Shown piece by piece: positions 294-35,755 of a stretch of DNA of 40,186 bases. The notes beneath the pieces were generated by a model, which worked only from the letters and a program-made list of their open reading frames with translations, ran no database searches and had not been told where the DNA came from. The translations under genes and the position numbers were made by a program. Origin of the DNA: a virus (Duplodnaviria > Caudoviricetes). The stretch covers positions 1-40,186 of the IMG/VR virus record IMGVR_UViG_3300043173_000130, one strand, 5' to 3'. Within the stretch, counting starts at the first letter, position 1, and each line of letters begins with the position of its first letter.

Positions 294-677
294 TTAGCCT
301 TGGTCCACGTAGCCCTTGCCACGCGGAACCCCGCTATCAGGGTTCATGTATTTGTTCATGCCATCCACACTATCCAGAGCTTCCCTGGCCTCATCCAGCC
401 CATACTTTTCAGCGTGCTGCTGCGCCAGTACGTCACCCGTAGCTCCTGGTCCCGTGGTTACTTCAACCTGCGCCCCCAGTTCGTACTCAATTAGCTTTTC
501 CAGGAAATGCTTGGCCTTGCGCAAGTCTTCCAGCCCATTCTTTTCCTTCCAGCGCAGCACGTACTTGAATATTTGTGCTTCCATGTAGGGCATTTTGTGC
601 ATCAGTACGAAATCCCAATGCTCTATGGGGAAACCTTTGTAGTGGGAGTCCCCCACTTGGCGTTCATTTGCTGTCAT
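294..677 (-). CDS. DUF3310 (T7 gp1.7 nucleotide kinase-like) protein
   Basis: QVGDSHYK..IEHWDF..IFKYVLRWKEKNGLEDLRKAKHFL is the DUF3310 signature; RBS CGAGGTGAA; ATGA overlap with the upstream gene. Confidence 0.85.
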   Translation of the reverse strand: MTANERQVGDSHYKGFPIEHWDFVLMHKMPYMEAQIFKYVLRWKEKNGLEDLRKAKHFLEKLIEYELGAQVEVTTGPGATGDVLAQQHAEKYGLDEAREALDSVDGMNKYMNPDSGVPRGKGYVDQG

Positions 678-1663
678 TTTTCACCTCGTCTATGTAACCA
701 ACTCACACAAGCATAGCGCCAGTCAGGGGCGTCTATGCGGTCGGCCCATACCTGGGCACCCTTGATATCCTTAAACTTGTACGCTTTGAGTGCTTGCCAC
801 ATAGGGTATGCTACACCAGACAAAAAAGGATAGCTAGTGAGTTCACCATGCGGTGTTTCTAGCCAGTCACACAGCGCATGGTAGAAGTCTAGGTGGTCAC
901 CTGTAAACAACTCAGGCCCTGGCATTATTTCTTTAGTCAGTGTGTATAGGTTGTTCTCATCATTGGGGAAGTTGCTGTACACCTCTTCAAACCGTGGCAT
1001 ATCGGGGTAGACGTGGAAATTGTTGCTGAACTGGGTGTATCTGCCCACGTCCATGTTGAGTGCGCAGGCTATATACTCCTGCATGAAGCTCATGTGGACT
1101 ACGTTTGCCCCGTAGCACCCCCAGATGGCGTCGTTGCTTCGGCAACACACAGTAAGGTCAAGTTCTGCTTCTGTATTACGGTGGGTGATGCTGATGTATG
1201 CGTGGGTGTTGCAGGGAATGTCCTTGCCCCCATTGTGGTCAAAGGCGGGGTTCCACATCGTTAGAACGGCCCGCCTGCTGTCTGGGTCTTTACGTAGCTG
1301 GTTTATCACAGCGTTAAGTTGGTCGTAACCAAACTCATGTCGCCAGCGATATCCGTAGGCCCCCTGTAAGAACCTGCCGTCATCGCTGTATTCGTACATA
1401 CGCTTCACTATGTTGCCCACGTACTCAACGTCGTTGCGCCCCGCCAGCATCCACAGGGCTTCAAAGAAGTGAAAGAAAGGGTTGGCGTCCCTTACAGAGT
1501 CGAATAGTACACGCTCCCTAGGATTGTGATAAACATTAACCACGGGACCAGGAGCCACAATAACCGGACCATTACGACTTTCTTGCATTTCGCCATCAAT
1601 TTTAAGATGCCATAAGCCATCCGGATAATTATCATTTACGTTGCGTCTAGATATCACGTGCAT
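674..1663 (-). CDS. Thymidylate synthase superfamily protein, probable dUMP hydroxymethylase
   Basis: SRNG, ANPFFHFFEALWMLAG, GAYGYRWR, DPDSRRAV, catalytic DIPCN, RSND..WG..GAN (Asn points to dUMP rather than dCMP), NNFHVY; adjacent to hmU kinase-like gene. Confidence 0.88.
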   Translation of the reverse strand: MHVISRRNVNDNYPDGLWHLKIDGEMQESRNGPVIVAPGPVVNVYHNPRERVLFDSVRDANPFFHFFEALWMLAGRNDVEYVGNIVKRMYEYSDDGRFLQGAYGYRWRHEFGYDQLNAVINQLRKDPDSRRAVLTMWNPAFDHNGGKDIPCNTHAYISITHRNTEAELDLTVCCRSNDAIWGCYGANVVHMSFMQEYIACALNMDVGRYTQFSNNFHVYPDMPRFEEVYSNFPNDENNLYTLTKEIMPGPELFTGDHLDFYHALCDWLETPHGELTSYPFLSGVAYPMWQALKAYKFKDIKGAQVWADRIDAPDWRYACVSWLHRRGEK

Positions 1664-1835
1664 CAGGTGTCACCTCGTCAATAAACTCCAGCCCGTGATC
1701 TTCTGCAAACACCTCCGCATCTTCTATACAACCGAAGACCTGTATCCAGGTGGGCGGCTCCCCCGGCACGTTCAGATTAGCAGTTACCCTGCCATCATCA
1801 AACTGTGTTCTTACTGTAAGGGTGCCTTCAGCCAC
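1647..1835 (-). CDS. Small acidic hypothetical protein (62 aa from GTG 1835)
   Basis: Fills the gap between neighbours and overlaps both; the track start at 1865 is probably too long. Confidence 0.6.
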   Translation of the reverse strand: MAEGTLTVRTQFDDGRVTANLNVPGEPPTWIQVFGCIEDAEVFAEDHGLEFIDEVTPDARDI

Positions 1836-2679
1836 TTCGGTACCTCTGCTTCGGTTTGCCCTCACCTAAGTAGGTGCGGTCGTATTTATCGAATTCGCAC
1901 AAGCAGTTTTGGAAGTCTTGCATATCTATTCCAGGCATCGGGTTAAGCCTGTCGCGTATGCGCCCCCACATAGCCAGGGCCACCCCCATAAAAGAACCCC
2001 TGGTGACGCCTGTCGAGCCTACCAGACGCTTTAATCCCCGCATACTACCAGGGCCAGGGGCACACCATGTGAGGTGGTCAGCGGCGTCCTGTAGCGGGTG
2101 TCCAGGCGTGTTCTTGAGGTCCGCAATAATCTGTGCTGCTAGGAAATCACCGAGTCCTTTCACGTTTGTTAGCCTGCTGTGGTAGTCTGCCAGTGTAACA
2201 TAACATGGCGTTCTTAGCACGCGGTCTTTATAGACGTCGTTCACCACACGGTAGACATAGTCTATCTTATCCATCTTAACGCCGCAGGTGGTGATAAGAT
2301 ACGCCCCGTTGAAGCACTTTTCCCCACGGGCACGCCGATCCTTAGACACACGGCACATATCATCTAAGTCCCAGCTTATAAAGGGCTGGAGTTCAACTAG
2401 GTGGTCGGGTAGGTTGAACATTCGGGCTAGAGTCATAGCCGCAGTGAGGTTCGAGTGGGTAGCGTTTTCGTTCCGCCAGTTACGGGCAACCCACTTCGTT
2501 ACTTTATCATTTTCCCTATGTACGTTGCAAAATCTATAGCTCTGCAAGATGGTATCACTGGTCCATGGGGGTTGCACCCCGTTCATACGCTTGGCGTAGA
2601 TACTGTACCGCTCGTTAATCCAATGAATTAACCTTCCTTCTACCATCTGCATAGGCTCTTTTCCATTGTATGCGTACAT
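1828..2679 (-). CDS. 5-hmdU DNA kinase-like protein (aGPT-Pplase1, helical glycosylase-like fold)
   Basis: WINERYSI..PWTSDTILQSYRFCNVHRENDKVT, FNGAYLI, GLGDFLAAQIIADL, PGPGSMRGL, QNCLCEFDKY; true start may be ATG 2652. Confidence 0.85.
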   Translation of the reverse strand: MYAYNGKEPMQMVEGRLIHWINERYSIYAKRMNGVQPPWTSDTILQSYRFCNVHRENDKVTKWVARNWRNENATHSNLTAAMTLARMFNLPDHLVELQPFISWDLDDMCRVSKDRRARGEKCFNGAYLITTCGVKMDKIDYVYRVVNDVYKDRVLRTPCYVTLADYHSRLTNVKGLGDFLAAQIIADLKNTPGHPLQDAADHLTWCAPGPGSMRGLKRLVGSTGVTRGSFMGVALAMWGRIRDRLNPMPGIDMQDFQNCLCEFDKYDRTYLGEGKPKQRYRSG

Positions 2680-3403
2680 CAGTTCGCTCCTTACCGCCCC
2701 AAGCGGTCTTCGTACGTTTTTTCACCAGGGTTACATACTCTGGGAACGCAGTGGCTAGCTCACGTGCCGCCCGCGCCTGCTCGTCCATAGTACGGTACTG
2801 GCTACACCCTCCATCGGTGTTGCTACCCACTTGGTCGTGTACCCAATCACTGAGGAGCAGGTTGCCATAGCCCGCAGTCAGCAAGCTAAGGCTCACGTAG
2901 AAGTCTTCCATCAGGTGCATGGCGTCAAAGCGTATGTCATGCAAGCGCAGCACAGTGACATCATAGGCCAGCACACGTAGAGTCCTGGTGTTGCGGTAAA
3001 ATTCGTTGGGCAGCCTGTTCCCGCCCTCCCTGGTACAGACGCCAACGTGAGCGTGAAACTCTAGGTGGGTACGGATGGCGTCAAGCATCATATCCACAAC
3101 GGTGTTGTTCGCTGGTTGAAACTTGGTACGGTCATCAAACCTGCGCTCAAAGAAGGTAAGGTCGTCATCCAGCATCAACAGATACTGGCCGGGACAGTTA
3201 TCAACTATCCACTGACGCGTGTTGCCGATGCCGTTCACTGGGCACTTCAGTATTTGTGCCCCGCTGCCTGAGCAACGGGTCATGTATTCGGGCCACTCGT
3301 CGGATGGCACCACTACTGAGGCGTTCCGCCGCCAAGAAAATGGAAGATTCTCAAGCGTAATCTGACGCGTAGCTCTACCAGAGCTAGGAATATAGATGTG
3401 CAT
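2615..3403 (-). CDS. GT-A glycosyltransferase of the TAGT/GREB1/JGT (base J glucosyltransferase-related) family
   Basis: IYIPSSGR, GIGNTRQWI, LMLDDDL (DxD), EDFYVSLSLL..G, NTDGGCS; RBS CGAGGTGAA. Confidence 0.82.
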   Translation of the reverse strand: MHIYIPSSGRATRQITLENLPFSWRRNASVVVPSDEWPEYMTRCSGSGAQILKCPVNGIGNTRQWIVDNCPGQYLLMLDDDLTFFERRFDDRTKFQPANNTVVDMMLDAIRTHLEFHAHVGVCTREGGNRLPNEFYRNTRTLRVLAYDVTVLRLHDIRFDAMHLMEDFYVSLSLLTAGYGNLLLSDWVHDQVGSNTDGGCSQYRTMDEQARAARELATAFPEYVTLVKKRTKTAWGGKERTDVRIQWKRAYADGRRKVNSLD

Positions 3404-3458: not shown

Positions 3459-3938
3459 TCACGCGCTAGCGCGGGAGCCCTCGCCTTCTTTCGGCTTCTT
3501 TGCGGCGGCGGCGTCAGCCTTTGCCTTCTTATCCGCTGCGGCAGCCTCTTTCTTTGCGGCAGCCAGCTTCGCTTTCTCGGCCTTGGCAGCTTCTTTGGCT
3601 ACTTTCTTTTCCGCCTTGGCCTTCTGCTCGGCTTCGTACGCGGCCTTCATCTCCGGGGTCTCGTTCACGGCAATGAAGCCATGCTCGCTATCCCACTTGA
3701 GGTCTGCGTAGGTTGGTCCGCCCTCCTGGGCGATGGCTTGGGCAACCGTCATGCCATTACGGTACTTGAACCGGTCGTAGCTCTTGCTGCCCTTACGCTT
3801 CGGGTTGCTGTCCACGCGCAACGTAATCACACCTTCCGATGGAAACAGGGGGCTGCCCCGCTGCTTCATTTTCTTTTCGCCATCCTGGGCTTTATCATCC
3901 TTGGGTGGGTTGCTTCGGGTACCTTTCTCATCGGCCAT
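3459..3938 (-). CDS. Putative DNA-binding protein: NPKRxGSKS-type small domain plus histone H1-like Ala/Lys tail
   Basis: NPKRKGSKSYDRF..GMTVAQAI..ADLKWD..GFI followed by AKAEKK/AAAKK repeats; strong RBS AAGGAG and own promoter. Confidence 0.75.
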   Translation of the reverse strand: MADEKGTRSNPPKDDKAQDGEKKMKQRGSPLFPSEGVITLRVDSNPKRKGSKSYDRFKYRNGMTVAQAIAQEGGPTYADLKWDSEHGFIAVNETPEMKAAYEAEQKAKAEKKVAKEAAKAEKAKLAAAKKEAAAADKKAKADAAAAKKPKEGEGSRASA

Positions 3939-6522: not shown

Positions 6523-6863
6523 TGCAGTGCCTCGCTTAACTTTTTCGCTTCTGTTTGCCCGGTGATATACTCGACATCTACCACGTCACCAGTTTTAAGT
6601 TCATCCCAATGTTTAATGATGTAGGTGTGGGCATGGGGGAGGGTAGTCGCCCCACCGGGCCATTCGTAAGGGTCGCAAGTGGCAAACCCTGACCCGCCTG
6701 CAAGGGGAGTCATCAACACGTACTCGCCCTGTCCATCGGGGTCTGGGCCATAGCCCGACCGAGACAGCAGGTAACGCTCCCCCTCACAGCTAGGCTTGAG
6801 GCGTATACACAGGACAGGCATGAAAGTGGCGGCGTCACGGATTTCTAGTATTTTTACTTCCAT
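6519..6863 (-). CDS. Hypothetical phage protein
   Basis: Stop/start overlaps with both neighbours. Confidence 0.75.
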   Translation of the reverse strand: MEVKILEIRDAATFMPVLCIRLKPSCEGERYLLSRSGYGPDPDGQGEYVLMTPLAGGSGFATCDPYEWPGGATTLPHAHTYIIKHWDELKTGDVVDVEYITGQTEAKKLSEALQ

Positions 6864-8641
6864 TAGTTACATTCCTTCAAGTCAAACCAGTTGGGGCCAA
6901 CGAAACCCTCGCTGGCAAAGGGGCAATCAAAGCGGGGGGCATCCATAATGTTTTCTAGCAGGCGCATATCAGTACGCCAGTCTTCTTCTGGCGCACTAAT
7001 GTTTATCTCATCATGTACCGTGGCTAGGAATATAGTAGAGTCTCGCTTTAGGTTATCCCACTCTATTACGGACTGCTTGGTCTGGTCGGCTGCGCTTCCT
7101 TGGATGAGGTAGTTAAGGAGTTTGTACTCAAAGCTACGCATTCTTCCTTTAATGAGTTTAGACGGCTCAGTGTAATATACACGTCCACCCCAGGTACGAA
7201 TAGGTTTTCCGGCATGGCCTCGCCGTTTAGTTGCTTTACTGAGGGCTGCAATACCGGGGAACGCACGGAAGTACGCGTCCAGTGTCCGTGCGGCGACAGG
7301 TATATCAACACCAAGCCCACTAGCAAGACCAGGAATGCCAGAGCCGTATATAATACGAAACGCCACAATTTTGACGGCCTTGCGTGCCAGTTGAAGTCTA
7401 GACTGTGCATAGATAATCTCCATTGCTAGGGCGTGTGGGTCAAGGCTTGGGTTTTTGATGTATGCTTGGAGCAGCACACCATCTTCGTAGTGCGCAGCTA
7501 TGCGGATTTCCTGGCTGCTAAAGTCCCGCTTGAGCCATACGTGCCCCTCTTCGGGCAGCAGGTACTGTCGGCATAGAGGAAGCGGCGGCAGGCCCTCAGG
7601 AATTACCTGCTCAAACTCGTTGCTTATATTCATCAAGTAAGGGCGCGACCCTGACAGCCTACCCGTGCGAGTACCTACAGAACCACCACCTAGATCAGTA
7701 CGTACCTGATTCCACGTAGTGTGCAGTCGGCTATCACTCCCAGAGTCCTGTTGCCAGGGTCGCATAAACGTCTGTAGACAGGTGGCTAGGGCACCCCGGT
7801 ACCGTAGTAGATGTACGGTCTGGGGGCAGTTGACAGCCGCCTGGAGGTTATCCTTGCTGGTGCTGCGCCGCCCGGTGGGGGTACGCACCCACTCACCGAT
7901 AAGGCCAGCAGTTTCAAGAGCATCAGCCATCTGCGTAGGGTTGGACCAATCTGTGCCAGTTCCCACCTTTATATCCAGGGCAAGGTCGCTCGCTCGCAAG
8001 GCATCCTCGTATATTACTAGGTCTACTTCTAACCGCTCCGTATTACACCGCACACCCTTCTTTTCACTGCGGTGCAGGATGGGCATGAGCTTCTGTTCTC
8101 GCCTGTAGGCGGGTTCCATAAGCTGTGCCACTATCTGTGGATACAGCTCCTGGTGTAGCGCGTAGGTCATGTCGACATCCTGGCGGGCGTACTTACTGAC
8201 TAGGGGCACCGGGGCCTCGCAGATAAACCTGCCCCATTCCTTGTTATTCCCGCCCGGTACATTCGCACGTATCCAAAGCTCAAGCTCATCGCGCTCTGCT
8301 AAGTCCCAGCCTAGTATCTTGGCTGCGTTGGGCTTCAGCTTTAGGTTCGTGCTGTAGGGGTCGTACAGGAATATGCTGTACATGGTGTCGTGTATGCGCA
8401 GTGGGTCGGGCATGGGGAGGTCAAACCAGTGGCAAGCGACAGCCATGTCAAACTTGGCGTGGTGACAAAGGATAGGCTCATCACTGCTAAATATAGCAGC
8501 AACTCTGAATTTCATTTCTTCCCAATTAGTGACGTACTGGCTGTTCTTGTCATTATATTTCAGCGCCACGCCTACCGGCCGAGGAGGCCGGTAGGACGTG
8601 TTACCATCAATGGCTTCAGTCTCGAAGTCAATAGTCCACAT
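6863..8641 (-). CDS. Family A DNA polymerase with 3'-5' exonuclease domain
   Basis: IDFET (ExoI), HHAKFD, YARQD, TRTGRLS, DFSSQEIR (motif A), K..AF.IIYGSG (motif B), NYLIQGSAAD, VHDE (motif C). Confidence 0.96.
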   Translation of the reverse strand: MWTIDFETEAIDGNTSYRPPRPVGVALKYNDKNSQYVTNWEEMKFRVAAIFSSDEPILCHHAKFDMAVACHWFDLPMPDPLRIHDTMYSIFLYDPYSTNLKLKPNAAKILGWDLAERDELELWIRANVPGGNNKEWGRFICEAPVPLVSKYARQDVDMTYALHQELYPQIVAQLMEPAYRREQKLMPILHRSEKKGVRCNTERLEVDLVIYEDALRASDLALDIKVGTGTDWSNPTQMADALETAGLIGEWVRTPTGRRSTSKDNLQAAVNCPQTVHLLRYRGALATCLQTFMRPWQQDSGSDSRLHTTWNQVRTDLGGGSVGTRTGRLSGSRPYLMNISNEFEQVIPEGLPPLPLCRQYLLPEEGHVWLKRDFSSQEIRIAAHYEDGVLLQAYIKNPSLDPHALAMEIIYAQSRLQLARKAVKIVAFRIIYGSGIPGLASGLGVDIPVAARTLDAYFRAFPGIAALSKATKRRGHAGKPIRTWGGRVYYTEPSKLIKGRMRSFEYKLLNYLIQGSAADQTKQSVIEWDNLKRDSTIFLATVHDEINISAPEEDWRTDMRLLENIMDAPRFDCPFASEGFVGPNWFDLKECN

Positions 8642-17168: not shown

Positions 17169-17235
17169 CGTATTACTATATGATGACAATCCCTTCGTCG
17201 GGACGACGCGCCAGCGGCGCGACGACCCGTTGAGC

Positions 17236-17400
17236 GAGCGCAGCGAGCGAGGCGCGCAATATGGCGCGCACCTTTCGCCCGGTAAGGGCGCACGAGCGAC
17301 AGCGAGTATGTGCGCAATATTGCGCACACCTTGTCACTTCTGTTGTTGCTTTTTTGCGAACATATGTGAGCACATTGACGCCGTGCCGAGCGAAGCGAGG
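17236..17400. repeat. Two ~38-bp direct repeats with palindromic cores, plus GAGCG(A/C)AGCGAG motifs
   Basis: Units 17236-17273 and 17294-17332; perfect 20-bp palindrome tgtgcgcaatattgcgcaca 17309-17328; ccgagcgaagcgagg 17386-17400. Confidence 0.75.
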
Positions 17401-17423
17401 CCCAGGCGAAAAAAATTTTAGAG

Positions 17424-17470
17424 TACTGTATAAATGCACAGTTGTACCAGATGCTGGATTGTGGTTTAAT
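17424..17470 (+). promoter_or_regulatory. LexA (SOS) box abutting the -35 of a sigma70 promoter
   Basis: TACTGTATAAATGCACAGTT (CTGT-N8-ACAG) 17424-17443; TTGTAC, 17 bp, TTTAAT. Confidence 0.7.
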
Positions 17471-17510
17471 GTTTATGGGCGCTGATGCCCAACACATAGG
17501 AAGCAAGAAA

Positions 17511-33694: not shown

Positions 33695-35303
33695 AAGTGC
33701 CAGGACCATAAGGTCTGGGCAGACTAATCTACAGCAACGGATTACGTCTGGCGCACCTATTCGTGGGCTTACTTCTCAAAAGTCTATTGCTGAGATGGAC
33801 TATCAGGACGCTGTTCGGCTTGACAACTTCATCGTAAAGCCTTTTGGGGTTGAGTTACGGCACGGCTACATTCTTCATCAGAATACTTTTGAATTTCGTA
33901 TTAACACCATTATTCCCTATCAAGCACGGGTACCGGCTGATGATCGTCTGTTTGGCGTTACCTATGAAGGAATTTATGACATAACTTCTCGTCAGGATAA
34001 CGCTGTCAAGCCTACTCCTGACGTTACGTTCGCCACACAGACTCTTGATGTAACAGATCTATGGTCGTGGATTCCTTTCTCCAATCTTGGTGAAAACTTT
34101 GTTTGTGCAGTAAGTGACCTCAACGGTTATTTCACGTATGATGCGACTGGTGGTTGGATAAGTCGTAACGCAGGTATGAGTGGCCCCGTAGGTTTCGACC
34201 CCCTTGATCTTGACTACATCATGTCGTGGAAACGTAGACTGTGGTTTGTGCCGCAGTCTGGTACAAAGGCTTACTATCTACCTGTCAATCAGGTTGTAGG
34301 TGTAGTAGAAGAATTTGATTTTGGCCCGTATATGCGCCAGGGCGGTTCTATAAAGCAGTTAGTGTCCTGGACTCGCGACGGCGGTGACGGCATTGATGAC
34401 TTCTTAATAGTGTTAGGGTCTCAGGGCGATGTAATTGTCTACCAGGGCACCGACCCTGCAAATGCCGACACCTTCGCAATGGTCGGTATTTGGGATCTTG
34501 GCAGTCTGCCCCTTGGGAGGCGGCTTGCTATTAAGTCTGGTGGTGATGTCAAGGTACTGTGTGAGGTGGGCCTCATTGACCTCAGCACACTGTTCCAGGG
34601 TGCGATAAACCTTGCATCAAAAGATTCATTGGGCTACCCAATCCAGACTGCTATCTCTAGTGTTGTTAATCGCACACTAAATACTGGACAGTGGGAGGTT
34701 CACTATTTTTCACCAGAAGAACTGTTTGTAGTTAAAGAACCGATCACTGTATTACTCACTGAGTCAAAAATGTGGGCAGCTAACGTACACTCTCGGGCTT
34801 GGGGTAACTTAAATGACCTTCCCCAGCAAACTCTGGGTATGTTTCAAGATCAGCTGTACGGCTCTGATTCTGTGGGTAACGTGTACCAGTTACTGACTGG
34901 CAACGTAGATAATTTAGATTTTGAAGGCTTCTCCAGTGAAATTACTGGTAGAATACAGACTGGCTTTTACAACTTCGGGACGGCTAAATTAAAGAAGTTC
35001 CATGTTATACAGCCTACGTTTCAATCCCTAGTTGCTCCTGCTCTTCAGGTACAGATGTACACGGAGTTTAATTTTGATGCCCTTTCAGGTTCGCCAGGGT
35101 TTGGCGCACCGACACAAGGTGCTCAATGGGATATTGATAAATGGGACATAGCAGTCTGGGCAGGGCTAGCGAACACGTTTCAAGTATGGGCAGGCGTACA
35201 GGGCATCGGATTCTTTGGTTCACTGGCTATGAATGTACGCGGCGTAGGTGGTACGATCTTTACGCATTGGTCCCTTGCTTTTGAGGAAGGGGGCTTCGTG
35301 TGA
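33672..35303 (+). CDS. Tail tubular protein B / DNA stabilisation protein (beta-propeller nozzle)
   Basis: API.GL, LDNF, WKRRLWF, WTRDGGDGIDD, VIVYQGTDP, WDIDKWD; ATG 33672 with RBS AAGGA. Confidence 0.8.
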   Translation: MPLQPLARSARTIRSGQTNLQQRITSGAPIRGLTSQKSIAEMDYQDAVRLDNFIVKPFGVELRHGYILHQNTFEFRINTIIPYQARVPADDRLFGVTYEGIYDITSRQDNAVKPTPDVTFATQTLDVTDLWSWIPFSNLGENFVCAVSDLNGYFTYDATGGWISRNAGMSGPVGFDPLDLDYIMSWKRRLWFVPQSGTKAYYLPVNQVVGVVEEFDFGPYMRQGGSIKQLVSWTRDGGDGIDDFLIVLGSQGDVIVYQGTDPANADTFAMVGIWDLGSLPLGRRLAIKSGGDVKVLCEVGLIDLSTLFQGAINLASKDSLGYPIQTAISSVVNRTLNTGQWEVHYFSPEELFVVKEPITVLLTESKMWAANVHSRAWGNLNDLPQQTLGMFQDQLYGSDSVGNVYQLLTGNVDNLDFEGFSSEITGRIQTGFYNFGTAKLKKFHVIQPTFQSLVAPALQVQMYTEFNFDALSGSPGFGAPTQGAQWDIDKWDIAVWAGLANTFQVWAGVQGIGFFGSLAMNVRGVGGTIFTHWSLAFEEGGFV

Positions 35304-35755
35304 TTGTTACTAGCGGCAGACATTTCATGCACAAGTGGCTCAATGAGCGTGTCACCGTGTCATTCTCTGCCGATTTTCGGGCTATAGGATGGACAGAGCG
35401 CGGTATGCTGAAGGCTGTGGTGGGGTATACTGACGTTCATGGTAAGACCGCGCAAATCCACGTTGCCGCGGAAGGAAAATACTGGATGCGTCGTGAGTTT
35501 CTATGGTTTACTTTTTATTATCCTTTTGTCCAGCTTAATCTTACTTGGCTAATCGGAATAGTGAATGCCAACAACGCCACTGCCGTGAAAATGGACACTA
35601 ACATAGGCTTTGAAGAGTTTGCACGTATACCCGACGGCTATGCTGACGGGGAAGATCTTATTATGCTGCGCCTACATCGTGATTCATCGCGTGTGCAGAA
35701 GTGGCTCAGCTTAGGAGAACGTTATGGGAAAAGCATCGCCGCCGCCTCCGCCTGA
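35300..35755 (+). CDS. GNAT-fold protein preceding the ejection proteins
   Basis: YPFVQL..N..AVKM...IGFEE..RI; position analogous to T7 gp13. Confidence 0.8.
   Translation: MIVTSGRHFMHKWLNERVTVSFSADFRAIGWTERGMLKAVVGYTDVHGKTAQIHVAAEGKYWMRREFLWFTFYYPFVQLNLTWLIGIVNANNATAVKMDTNIGFEEFARIPDGYADGEDLIMLRLHRDSSRVQKWLSLGERYGKSIAAASA

Follow-up and report, generated by a model that had tools for sequence, protein, structure and literature searches.

A glycosyltransferase in the kinase position of a phage thymidine hypermodification cassette suggests glycosylated 5-hydroxymethyluracil in DNA

The IMG/VR virus record IMGVR_UViG_3300043173_000130 (Duplodnaviria; Caudoviricetes), analyzed here over its full 40,186 nucleotides (the window), carries a five-gene cassette that is a real, widespread, and apparently unmeasured variant of thymidine hypermodification in minimal form. 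The cassette harbors a thymidylate synthase (TS) homolog, a TAGT-family glycosyltransferase (GT) of the GT-A type, and a member of the aGPT-Pplase1 family (hereafter Pplase1), and the sugar transferase takes the place of the DNA kinase of known systems, not that of their amine transferase. The TS homolog likely makes hydroxymethyl-dUMP (hm-dUMP), which the phage polymerase would likely incorporate into DNA for some or all thymine. The TAGT enzyme then likely attaches a sugar directly to the hydroxyl of 5-hydroxymethyluracil (hmU). No DNA kinase gene is found in the genome, so glycosylation would proceed without prior phosphorylation. The sugar donor is probably a nucleoside diphosphate (NDP)-sugar of the host, since no sugar-synthesis gene is seen, and the product would be a glycosyl-hmU of the base-J type, predicted to block host nucleases. 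Pplase1 may act in parallel on 5-CH2-X bases, most likely converting uncapped hmU to plain T. We infer these reactions from the observed genes, motifs, folds, absences, and co-occurrence, and assign the whole scheme a probability of roughly 55%; its core, glycosyl-hmU in DNA, is held with distinctly greater assurance.

The original prediction, made from the sequence alone, had named the gene product at 1828-2679 an hmU DNA kinase, on the premise that the aGPT-Pplase1 family is a kinase family. It is not a kinase but a helix-hairpin-helix (HhH) paralog of the amino acid:DNA transferases (AADTs). The protein far exceeds the PF18723 cut-off of 25 bits (Table 1), with a match spanning profile positions 7-275 of 281. 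It is 30-35% identical to gp55 of phage M6, gp50 of PaMx11, and gp19 of PhiJL001 (JL001) and has no match to the kinases M6 gp54 or PaMx11 gp49. Pfam assigns M6 gp55 to PF18723 and M6 gp54 to PF18748, whereas SP10 gp186 is a fusion of PF18748 to PF18723. The Pfam name of PF18723, “HMUDK_hel”, was likely taken from this SP10 fusion. A Walker A motif is present in 0 of 112 Pplase1 family rows versus 19 of 19 kinase rows. The premise is contradicted by the portions of Lee 2022 (PMC8989533) available here, in which the hmU DNA kinases are P-loop proteins (e.g., M6 gp54), omission of gp55 from the lysates does not prevent formation of the glycinyl product, and removal of the C-terminal helical domain of SP10 gp186 leaves the kinase domain active. 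Labels in this field are inconsistent more generally: RefSeq calls proven hmU DNA kinases “terminase small subunit” (loci L006:11686-12249, L005:6393-6962, and L172:14383-16296 of our collection), and Table 3 of Lee 2018 (PMC5889632), as far as its text is available, exchanges the clade labels that Pfam and Lee 2022 give to M6 gp51 and gp55.

The predicted Pplase1 model is all-helical, with a predicted local distance difference test (pLDDT) score of 94.6. Compared with 48,161 chains, it is closest to the AADT gp46 (8z2m; Z 10.1, root-mean-square deviation 4.6, 220 residues), followed by HhH DNA glycosylases; the top 23 VIA rows comprise 21 for gp46 or DNA glycosylases and two for DUF2419. Foldseek with this model gave nothing below E 0.001, and PDB sequence searches with Pplase1 and the GT gave no match.

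The P-loop hmU kinase (PF18748, gp54/gp49-like) has no match in the window record, and a home-built kinase hidden Markov model (HMM) returned nothing below E 0.75 from the window and the 1,766-bp stretch that closes the genome. The expectation that no AADT would be found held over the same two sequences: PF18724 (AADT clade 2) has no match in the window at E up to 1, a clean AADT HMM is not significant, and searches of the window record for AADT and clade 3 were blank. Both enzymes of the M6/ViI-type pathway, in which kinase and AADT act through 5-phosphomethyldeoxyuridine (5-PmdU), are thus absent from the closed genome. Home-built HMMs found no HD nucleotidase or dCMP deaminase over window and closing stretch, and TET/JBP has no Pfam match among 51 open reading frames (ORFs) of the window and four of the closing stretch. 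The route first proposed, with hmU phosphorylated by Pplase1 and a sugar-phosphate diester or second mark made by the GT, is very improbable. The Pfam name, the phosphate-plus-sugar T reported in the accessible parts of work on SP-15, YerA41, and Carin-5, and a true kinase adjoining a GT-B gene at one related locus (L105) would fit such a route, but Pplase1 has no P-loop or Walker A, and the proven kinases are another family, absent from this genome. From the range of products originally entertained, glycosyl-hmU stands as the best-supported reading, while phospho-hmU and sugar-phosphate are left without an enzyme in the genome; a sugar-phosphate diester is here unsupported.

The exchange of kinase for sugar transferase recurs across relatives. 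The best 80 Pplase1 loci of 531 confirmed stretches gave 63 clusters at 90% identity, and the best 80 TAGT loci of 376 confirmed stretches gave 53 non-redundant clusters, both samples being biased towards the relatives of the window. TAGT is present in 34 Pplase1 clusters and a P-loop kinase in 17; none has both, and 12 have neither (Fisher p 5e-8 for the exclusion, not corrected for kinship). The gene directly upstream of Pplase1 is the TAGT in 32/34 and the kinase in 13/17. Nine of the 12 clusters lacking both have TS (six with a GT-B, one with a divergent TAGT, two unassigned), and the GT-B lies mostly in the same cap slot, with Atlas placing it in T4 beta-glucosyltransferase-like clusters (one member tested). 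Conversely, all 53 TAGT clusters have the same TS type, 50 have Pplase1, 25 have HD, and none has the kinase; no TAGT locus matches the clean AADT model. In whole records, the kinase is found in 0 of 40 that bear TAGT (37 viral contigs, 24 of them at least 90% complete, and three GenBank genomes), and TAGT in 0 of 20 that bear the kinase. The same search recovered the kinase in 12/12 kinase controls, of which nine had contributed to training and three (M6, PaMx11, and SP10) had not. L050 was left out of the whole-record searches. PF20691 missed the divergent TAGT of L059, so these absences are of limited sensitivity. A quick tree built from 106 Pplase1 rows (two short rows left out, GT rows over-sampled) requires at least 8 changes of the kinase label on starred branches, with L144/L028, L158/L091, and JL001/PaMx11 as GT/kinase sister pairs.

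The GT was originally placed in the transferase slot. It instead replaces the kinase, because TAGT and kinase do not occur together in the sampled clusters and records, share the same slot, and have swapped at least eight times on the tree. Three unrelated enzymes thus occupy one slot and share only a hydroxyl acceptor, which is most simply explained if hmU in DNA is glycosylated directly. The T4 beta-glucosyltransferase-like GT-B family in or near the cap slot has no Pfam or PHROG match (L046:383-1345, L048:9021-9977, L060:104-1057, L075:8911-10029, and L045:11606-12538). Fifteen prophage-like loci or loci from metagenome-assembled genomes (MAGs) divide into three with TAGT, four with kinase, one with GT-B, and seven with Pplase1 alone.

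The TS homolog harbors the catalytic C151 and N187 at the dUMP-specificity position, as the original prediction had noted for the Asn, and falls within the M6/SP10 clade. The CMP hydroxymethylase MilA has Asp at this position. By full-length tblastn, the protein is 43% identical to M6 gp58, PaMx11 gp51, and JL001 gp24; alignment gives 44-46% to the M6, PaMx11, and JL001 enzymes and 32% to SP10 gp188, and the protein scores far below the NCBIfam ThyA cut-offs. It is likely a dUMP hydroxymethylase with hm-dUMP as its product, because of Cys151, Asn187, and this 43% identity. The GT has the PF20691 match, the GT-A fold, and the DxD and ED motifs of the TAGT/GT-A DNA glycosyltransferases. Residues D79, D81, and D167 are invariant in 122 rows, and the model (pLDDT 95.5) matches RmlT/TarS/TarP at E about 1e-7; for JL001 gp22, the TAGT match reaches 181 bits. 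The predicted role of the window enzyme is transfer of a sugar onto 5-hydroxymethyl groups in DNA. The named member of PHROG family 842 presumably adds a second sugar onto glucosyl-5-hydroxymethylcytosine (glucosyl-hmC). TAGT and the aGPT-Pplases were reportedly defined by Iyer in 2013, who may also have predicted base-J-like phage DNA.

The sugar is taken as the end product because genomes with GT and TS but no Pplase1 exist (the complete G036 and MW202897) and because sugar-tailoring genes neighbor the GT in relatives: second GTs, radical SAM, or FkbM enzymes lie beside it in L004, L076, L059, and L026. That GT and kinase interchange directly upstream of Pplase1, which accompanies nearly all TAGT clusters, would also be expected if the sugar, like phosphate, merely activated the base, the Pplase1 cysteine then displacing it with amine or hydride so that the packaged base held no glycoside. 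SP10, which fuses kinase to Pplase1 and has no clade-2 AADT, would fit such a relay, as would the lack of PF18724 in 7 of 9 kinase-bearing viral records. We nevertheless regard the relay as rather unlikely, for it leaves the Pplase1-free GT+TS genomes aside and is hard to square with tailoring of a leaving group. A glycosyl ether is, moreover, a poorer leaving group than phosphate. The Fig. S20 legend in the available literature also credits gp46, not gp50, with GlyT alongside the kinase. The sugar-tailoring loci (L059:8107-9946, L061:8039-9987, L026:14824-16345, and L023:13388-16184) are of several types: radical SAM/SPASM by the GT or an unassigned ORF, TAGT with an FkbM methyltransferase, and GT1 with HAD/APH and a cytidylyltransferase.

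If glycosyl-hmU is the final mark, as we favor, Pplase1 would have a parallel role. Cys261 is present in 112/112 family rows. The sequence E-V-E-H-T-L-C of PaMx11 gp50 and JL001 gp19 lines up with E-v-E-t-v-L-C, the AADT motif, and weak HMM matches through these two proteins align Cys261 with gp46 Cys247, the proposed catalytic residue in the accessible text of the gp46 structure paper (PMC11472151). The AADT metal ligand is Glu243. Pplase1 would thus keep the cysteine by which its AADT paralog adds to C6 and releases the C5-methylene substituent. The family occurs in M6, PaMx11, ViI, PhiW-14, and SP10, and the final DNA of SP10, PhiW-14, M6, and ViI contains T but no hmU; the available sections of the related papers name no enzyme for this hmU-to-T step. 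Tentatively, Pplase1 may turn leftover hmU into T, the orphan step of these four phages. It is less probable that Pplase1 strips marks at the replication fork, and similarly so that it displaces the sugar with another group; a non-catalytic reader function appears somewhat less likely still, on a par with some other role.

Pplase1 is optional and independent of the cap, occurring with either type and missing from either; MW202655, for example, has AADT and kinase without it. A fusion to primase, helicase, or PolA domains is seen in 17 of 20 long homologs, and the Cys motif is retained in each of the 18 complete Pplase1 domains of this clade, which favors action at the fork. These arrangements, together with the base-flipping HhH fold, the independence of cap type, and the dispensability for synthesis in the available parts of Lee 2022 (PMC8989533), would suit a protein that removes bulky marks from incoming template during replication or tethers primase and polymerase to modified DNA, glycosyl-hmU again being the final mark. 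We consider this combined eraser or reader role improbable, though not negligibly so: a search for a viral locus encoding a Pplase1-primase fusion was negative, and the fusions could come from cellular or other mobile elements; several are interrelated (up to 78% identity); and modified phages without Pplase1 exist. No fusion of GT or P-loop hmU kinase to Pplase1 appeared among the 20 long matches, a weak negative, as SP10 gp186 itself was not returned. The fusion proteins (P0242-P0258) join Pplase1 to Prim-Pol, RepB primase, AAA_25 or SF3 helicase, Toprim, or PolA. Stand-alone Pplase1 genes with no TS nearby occur on large contigs or MAGs (L078, L080, L082, L104, L184, L185, L187, L188, L189, and L193), with a nucleoside hydrolase (L082) and a weak DruA match (L104) among the neighbors.

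Several points weigh against the preferred scheme of direct glycosylation with Pplase1 in parallel. A direct assay of M6 gp58 as a hydroxymethylase was not found in the literature, and TS homologs can give other products, such as the 5-hydroxy-dC made for arabinosylation in the accessible part of PMC13326640. The window enzyme could accordingly make 5-hydroxy-dUMP or plain dTMP, with the sugar on another acceptor, and the missing HD nucleotidase and dCMP deaminase agree with this, as does the presumed second-sugar transfer to glucosyl-hmC by the named PHROG 842 member; the possibility is small, given the full-length identity to TS of hmU-hypermodifying phages, the service of the same TS clade in kinase-type sister cassettes, and Asn187, which excludes the dCMP-type Asp. 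Since the same two enzymes were not found, substitution in this phage may be partial. The exclusion between cap enzymes has one exception, L105:13046-14610, in which a P-loop hmU kinase overlaps a GT-B gene. T-containing 6-bp palindromes remain avoided at 0.57-0.77 of expectation.

Other points bear on the role of Pplase1. The position of Glu243 is Gln257 in the window protein (Gln in 111/112 rows), profile-profile comparison of Pplase1 with AADT (hhalign) is not significant (E 0.58 and 0.31), and the Z of 10.1 lies under the caution line of the tool, about 13 for helical folds. Pplase1 is without a reductant-binding domain, and the portions of Lee 2018 and Lee 2022 at hand describe no conversion of hmU to T by lysates of gp55 or gp160. 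SP10 forms glutamyl-T without a clade-2 AADT, and such an AADT lies in the locus in 4 of 17 kinase clusters (clean-seed model) and is missing from the other 13; both observations favor Pplase1 as a transferase. Separately, the identity of residue 257 (Glu or Gln) does not distinguish kinase from GT types, as Gln occurs in both and JL001 (a GT type) has Glu. L105 is a better candidate than the window for a sugar-phosphate or double mark. SP10-like loci with kinase, Pplase1, and TS but no clade-2 AADT are L028, L067, L069, L073, L077, L079, L088, L091, L097, L102, and L106.

The description of the cassette as five overlapping, coupled genes is borne out by coordinates, overlaps, and family scans (Table 1); successive overlaps are 65, 8, 17, and 4 nt.

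Table 1. Genes of the cassette and the gene directly upstream of it, with window coordinates.
Feature	Position	Strand	Details
TAGT-family GT-A glycosyltransferase	2615..3403	-	262 aa; PF20691 66.9 bits, E 3e-18; phrog_842 E 6e-50
aGPT-Pplase1 (PF18723 “HMUDK_hel”)	1828..2679	-	283 aa; 140.8 bits
62-aa ORF	1647..1835	-	GTG at 1835, GAGG site 7 nt upstream; limited to the clade of the window
TS homolog, M6/PaMx11/JL001 type	674..1663	-	C151, R175-S176-x-D178, N187, H217-x-Y219
DUF3310 protein	294..677	-	PF11753; phrog_236 “nucleotide kinase” E 4e-18
Basic Lys/Ala-rich protein	3459..3938	-	159 aa; directly upstream of the cassette; homologous to JL001 gp18, E 2e-9

The DUF3310 protein is homologous to M6 gp61 and JL001 gp26 and, from its PHROG label, may be a candidate nucleotide kinase for hm-dUMP. 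The 62-aa ORF, which reaches 72 aa if begun at GTG 1865, has no Pfam or PHROG family match; its homologs are 65-90% identical and hold the same position in close relatives. The Lys/Ala-rich protein lies upstream in many GT-type loci (not counted) and is often kept with the cassette; its Atlas matches are hypothetical only, with scores of 0.83 or less.

The cassette forms the end of a leftward replication arm (SNF2 helicase, nucleases, PolA) in a phage that also encodes terminase, portal, and capsid proteins. Completeness of the record is 97%, and contig L007 (99.97-100% identical) joins both ends via 1,766 bp into a circle of ~41,952 bp. This closing stretch carries genes for a tail-collar protein and an unknown 168-aa protein, together with the end of a 601-aa protein. 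No tRNA was found. PolA (6863-8641) matches DpoZ-type polymerases below the cut-off (150 versus 500 bits), and PurZ has no match among the ORFs scanned. At 17176-17485, in a gene-poor stretch before the packaging genes, opposite-strand ORFs encode the same peptide, suggesting an inverted repeat or palindrome. A GNAT acetyltransferase (phrog_4470; 35300-35755) within the tail/ejection-protein cluster, outside the cassette, is probably structural. Across the whole genome, 6-bp palindromes are strongly avoided, T-free ones most (0.34 of expectation), and GATC stands at 0.54. The difference between T-free and T-containing palindromes was dropped as a modification signal, the M6 segment being without the pattern. 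In three marine-sediment sequencing data sets the fraction of words present is 0.89-0.91, and the source may be among them; no RNA data set is listed among the runs as carrying the sequence.

These results predict that a common group of phages bears a prokaryotic mark resembling base J, and they correct a Pfam label that misleadingly presents an orphan transferase paralog as a “kinase”. They narrow the question of how leftover hmU becomes thymine to one testable protein and one cysteine, and an hmU-specific phage GT is a candidate labeling tool for hmU in DNA. As a broader and more tentative proposal, widespread ~40-kb phages may make base J, or another glycosyl-hmU, with two enzymes; kinase, GT-A, and GT-B would be interchangeable caps, and Pplase1, working with primase and polymerase, a cysteine-based hmU-to-T writer or a fork cap eraser. 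A literature search whose coverage included PMC13229309, PMC11946847, PMC10201439, PMC6588365, and PMC8306868 found no report of phage glycosyl-hmU or of activity for aGPT-Pplase clade 1.

The cassette shares its TS homolog, Pplase1, and DUF3310 protein with M6, PaMx11, ViI, PhiW-14, and SP10 (PMC5889632, PMC8989533), ordered as in M6 and PaMx11, as well as a post-replicative change of the 5-hydroxymethyl group. In contrast to M6-type systems, the window has neither the P-loop hmU DNA kinase (5-HMUDK) nor a clade-2 AADT, a GT-A enzyme sits in the kinase slot, pyridoxal phosphate (PLP), radical SAM, or FAD tailoring enzymes are absent, and neither HD nor dCMP deaminase was found. Kinetoplastid base J (JBP1/2 and JGT) likewise involves hmU glycosylation in DNA by a GT-A enzyme, as predicted here, and JGT is a structural match of phage GT-A enzymes in the available text of Pyle et al. 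(bioRxiv 10.1101/2023.12.21.572611). However, hmU of the window would come from a TS homolog at the nucleotide level, not from a dioxygenase, and its role would be defensive, not regulatory. Base J is beta-D-glucose on hmU.

T-even glucosyl-hmC and the phage TET-associated GTs (PMC8256090; bioRxiv 10.1101/2023.12.21.572611, both as far as accessible) share the pre-replicative hydroxymethyl pyrimidine, the post-replicative GT, and the TAGT/PHROG 842 family, but the acceptor in the window is predicted to be uracil (Asn187), not cytosine, and the partner is Pplase1. T4 beta-GT can glucosylate hmU according to the available part of PMC4111573, and the Pyle preprint, in its accessible part, places GT-A genes with ThyS in metaviromes without partner analysis. 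SP-15, YerA41, and Carin-5 (PMC12686479, PMC9023294, in the portions available) have a glycosylated T-coding base in phage DNA as well. Their known or proposed modifications include a pentyl linker, phosphate, and an oligosaccharide of ~1 kDa, and their genomes of 145-222 kb contain multi-gene sugar blocks, in contrast to one GT in the 42-kb genome of the window.

The closest systems are PhiJL001 (AY576273; gp19, gp22, and gp24) and Brevibacterium phage LuckyBarnes (NC_047851; gp38-41), which have the same triad of Pplase1, TAGT, and TS; no kinase or AADT exceeds the cut-off in their whole records. No report of the DNA chemistry of either was found in the literature. LuckyBarnes differs in having two GTs. 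Its TS is called a dCMP hydroxymethylase in the accessible text of the genome announcement; the gp41 motif WGWSGINSF shows Asn. Both phages are cultured, and the predicted base-J-like mark can be measured in either.

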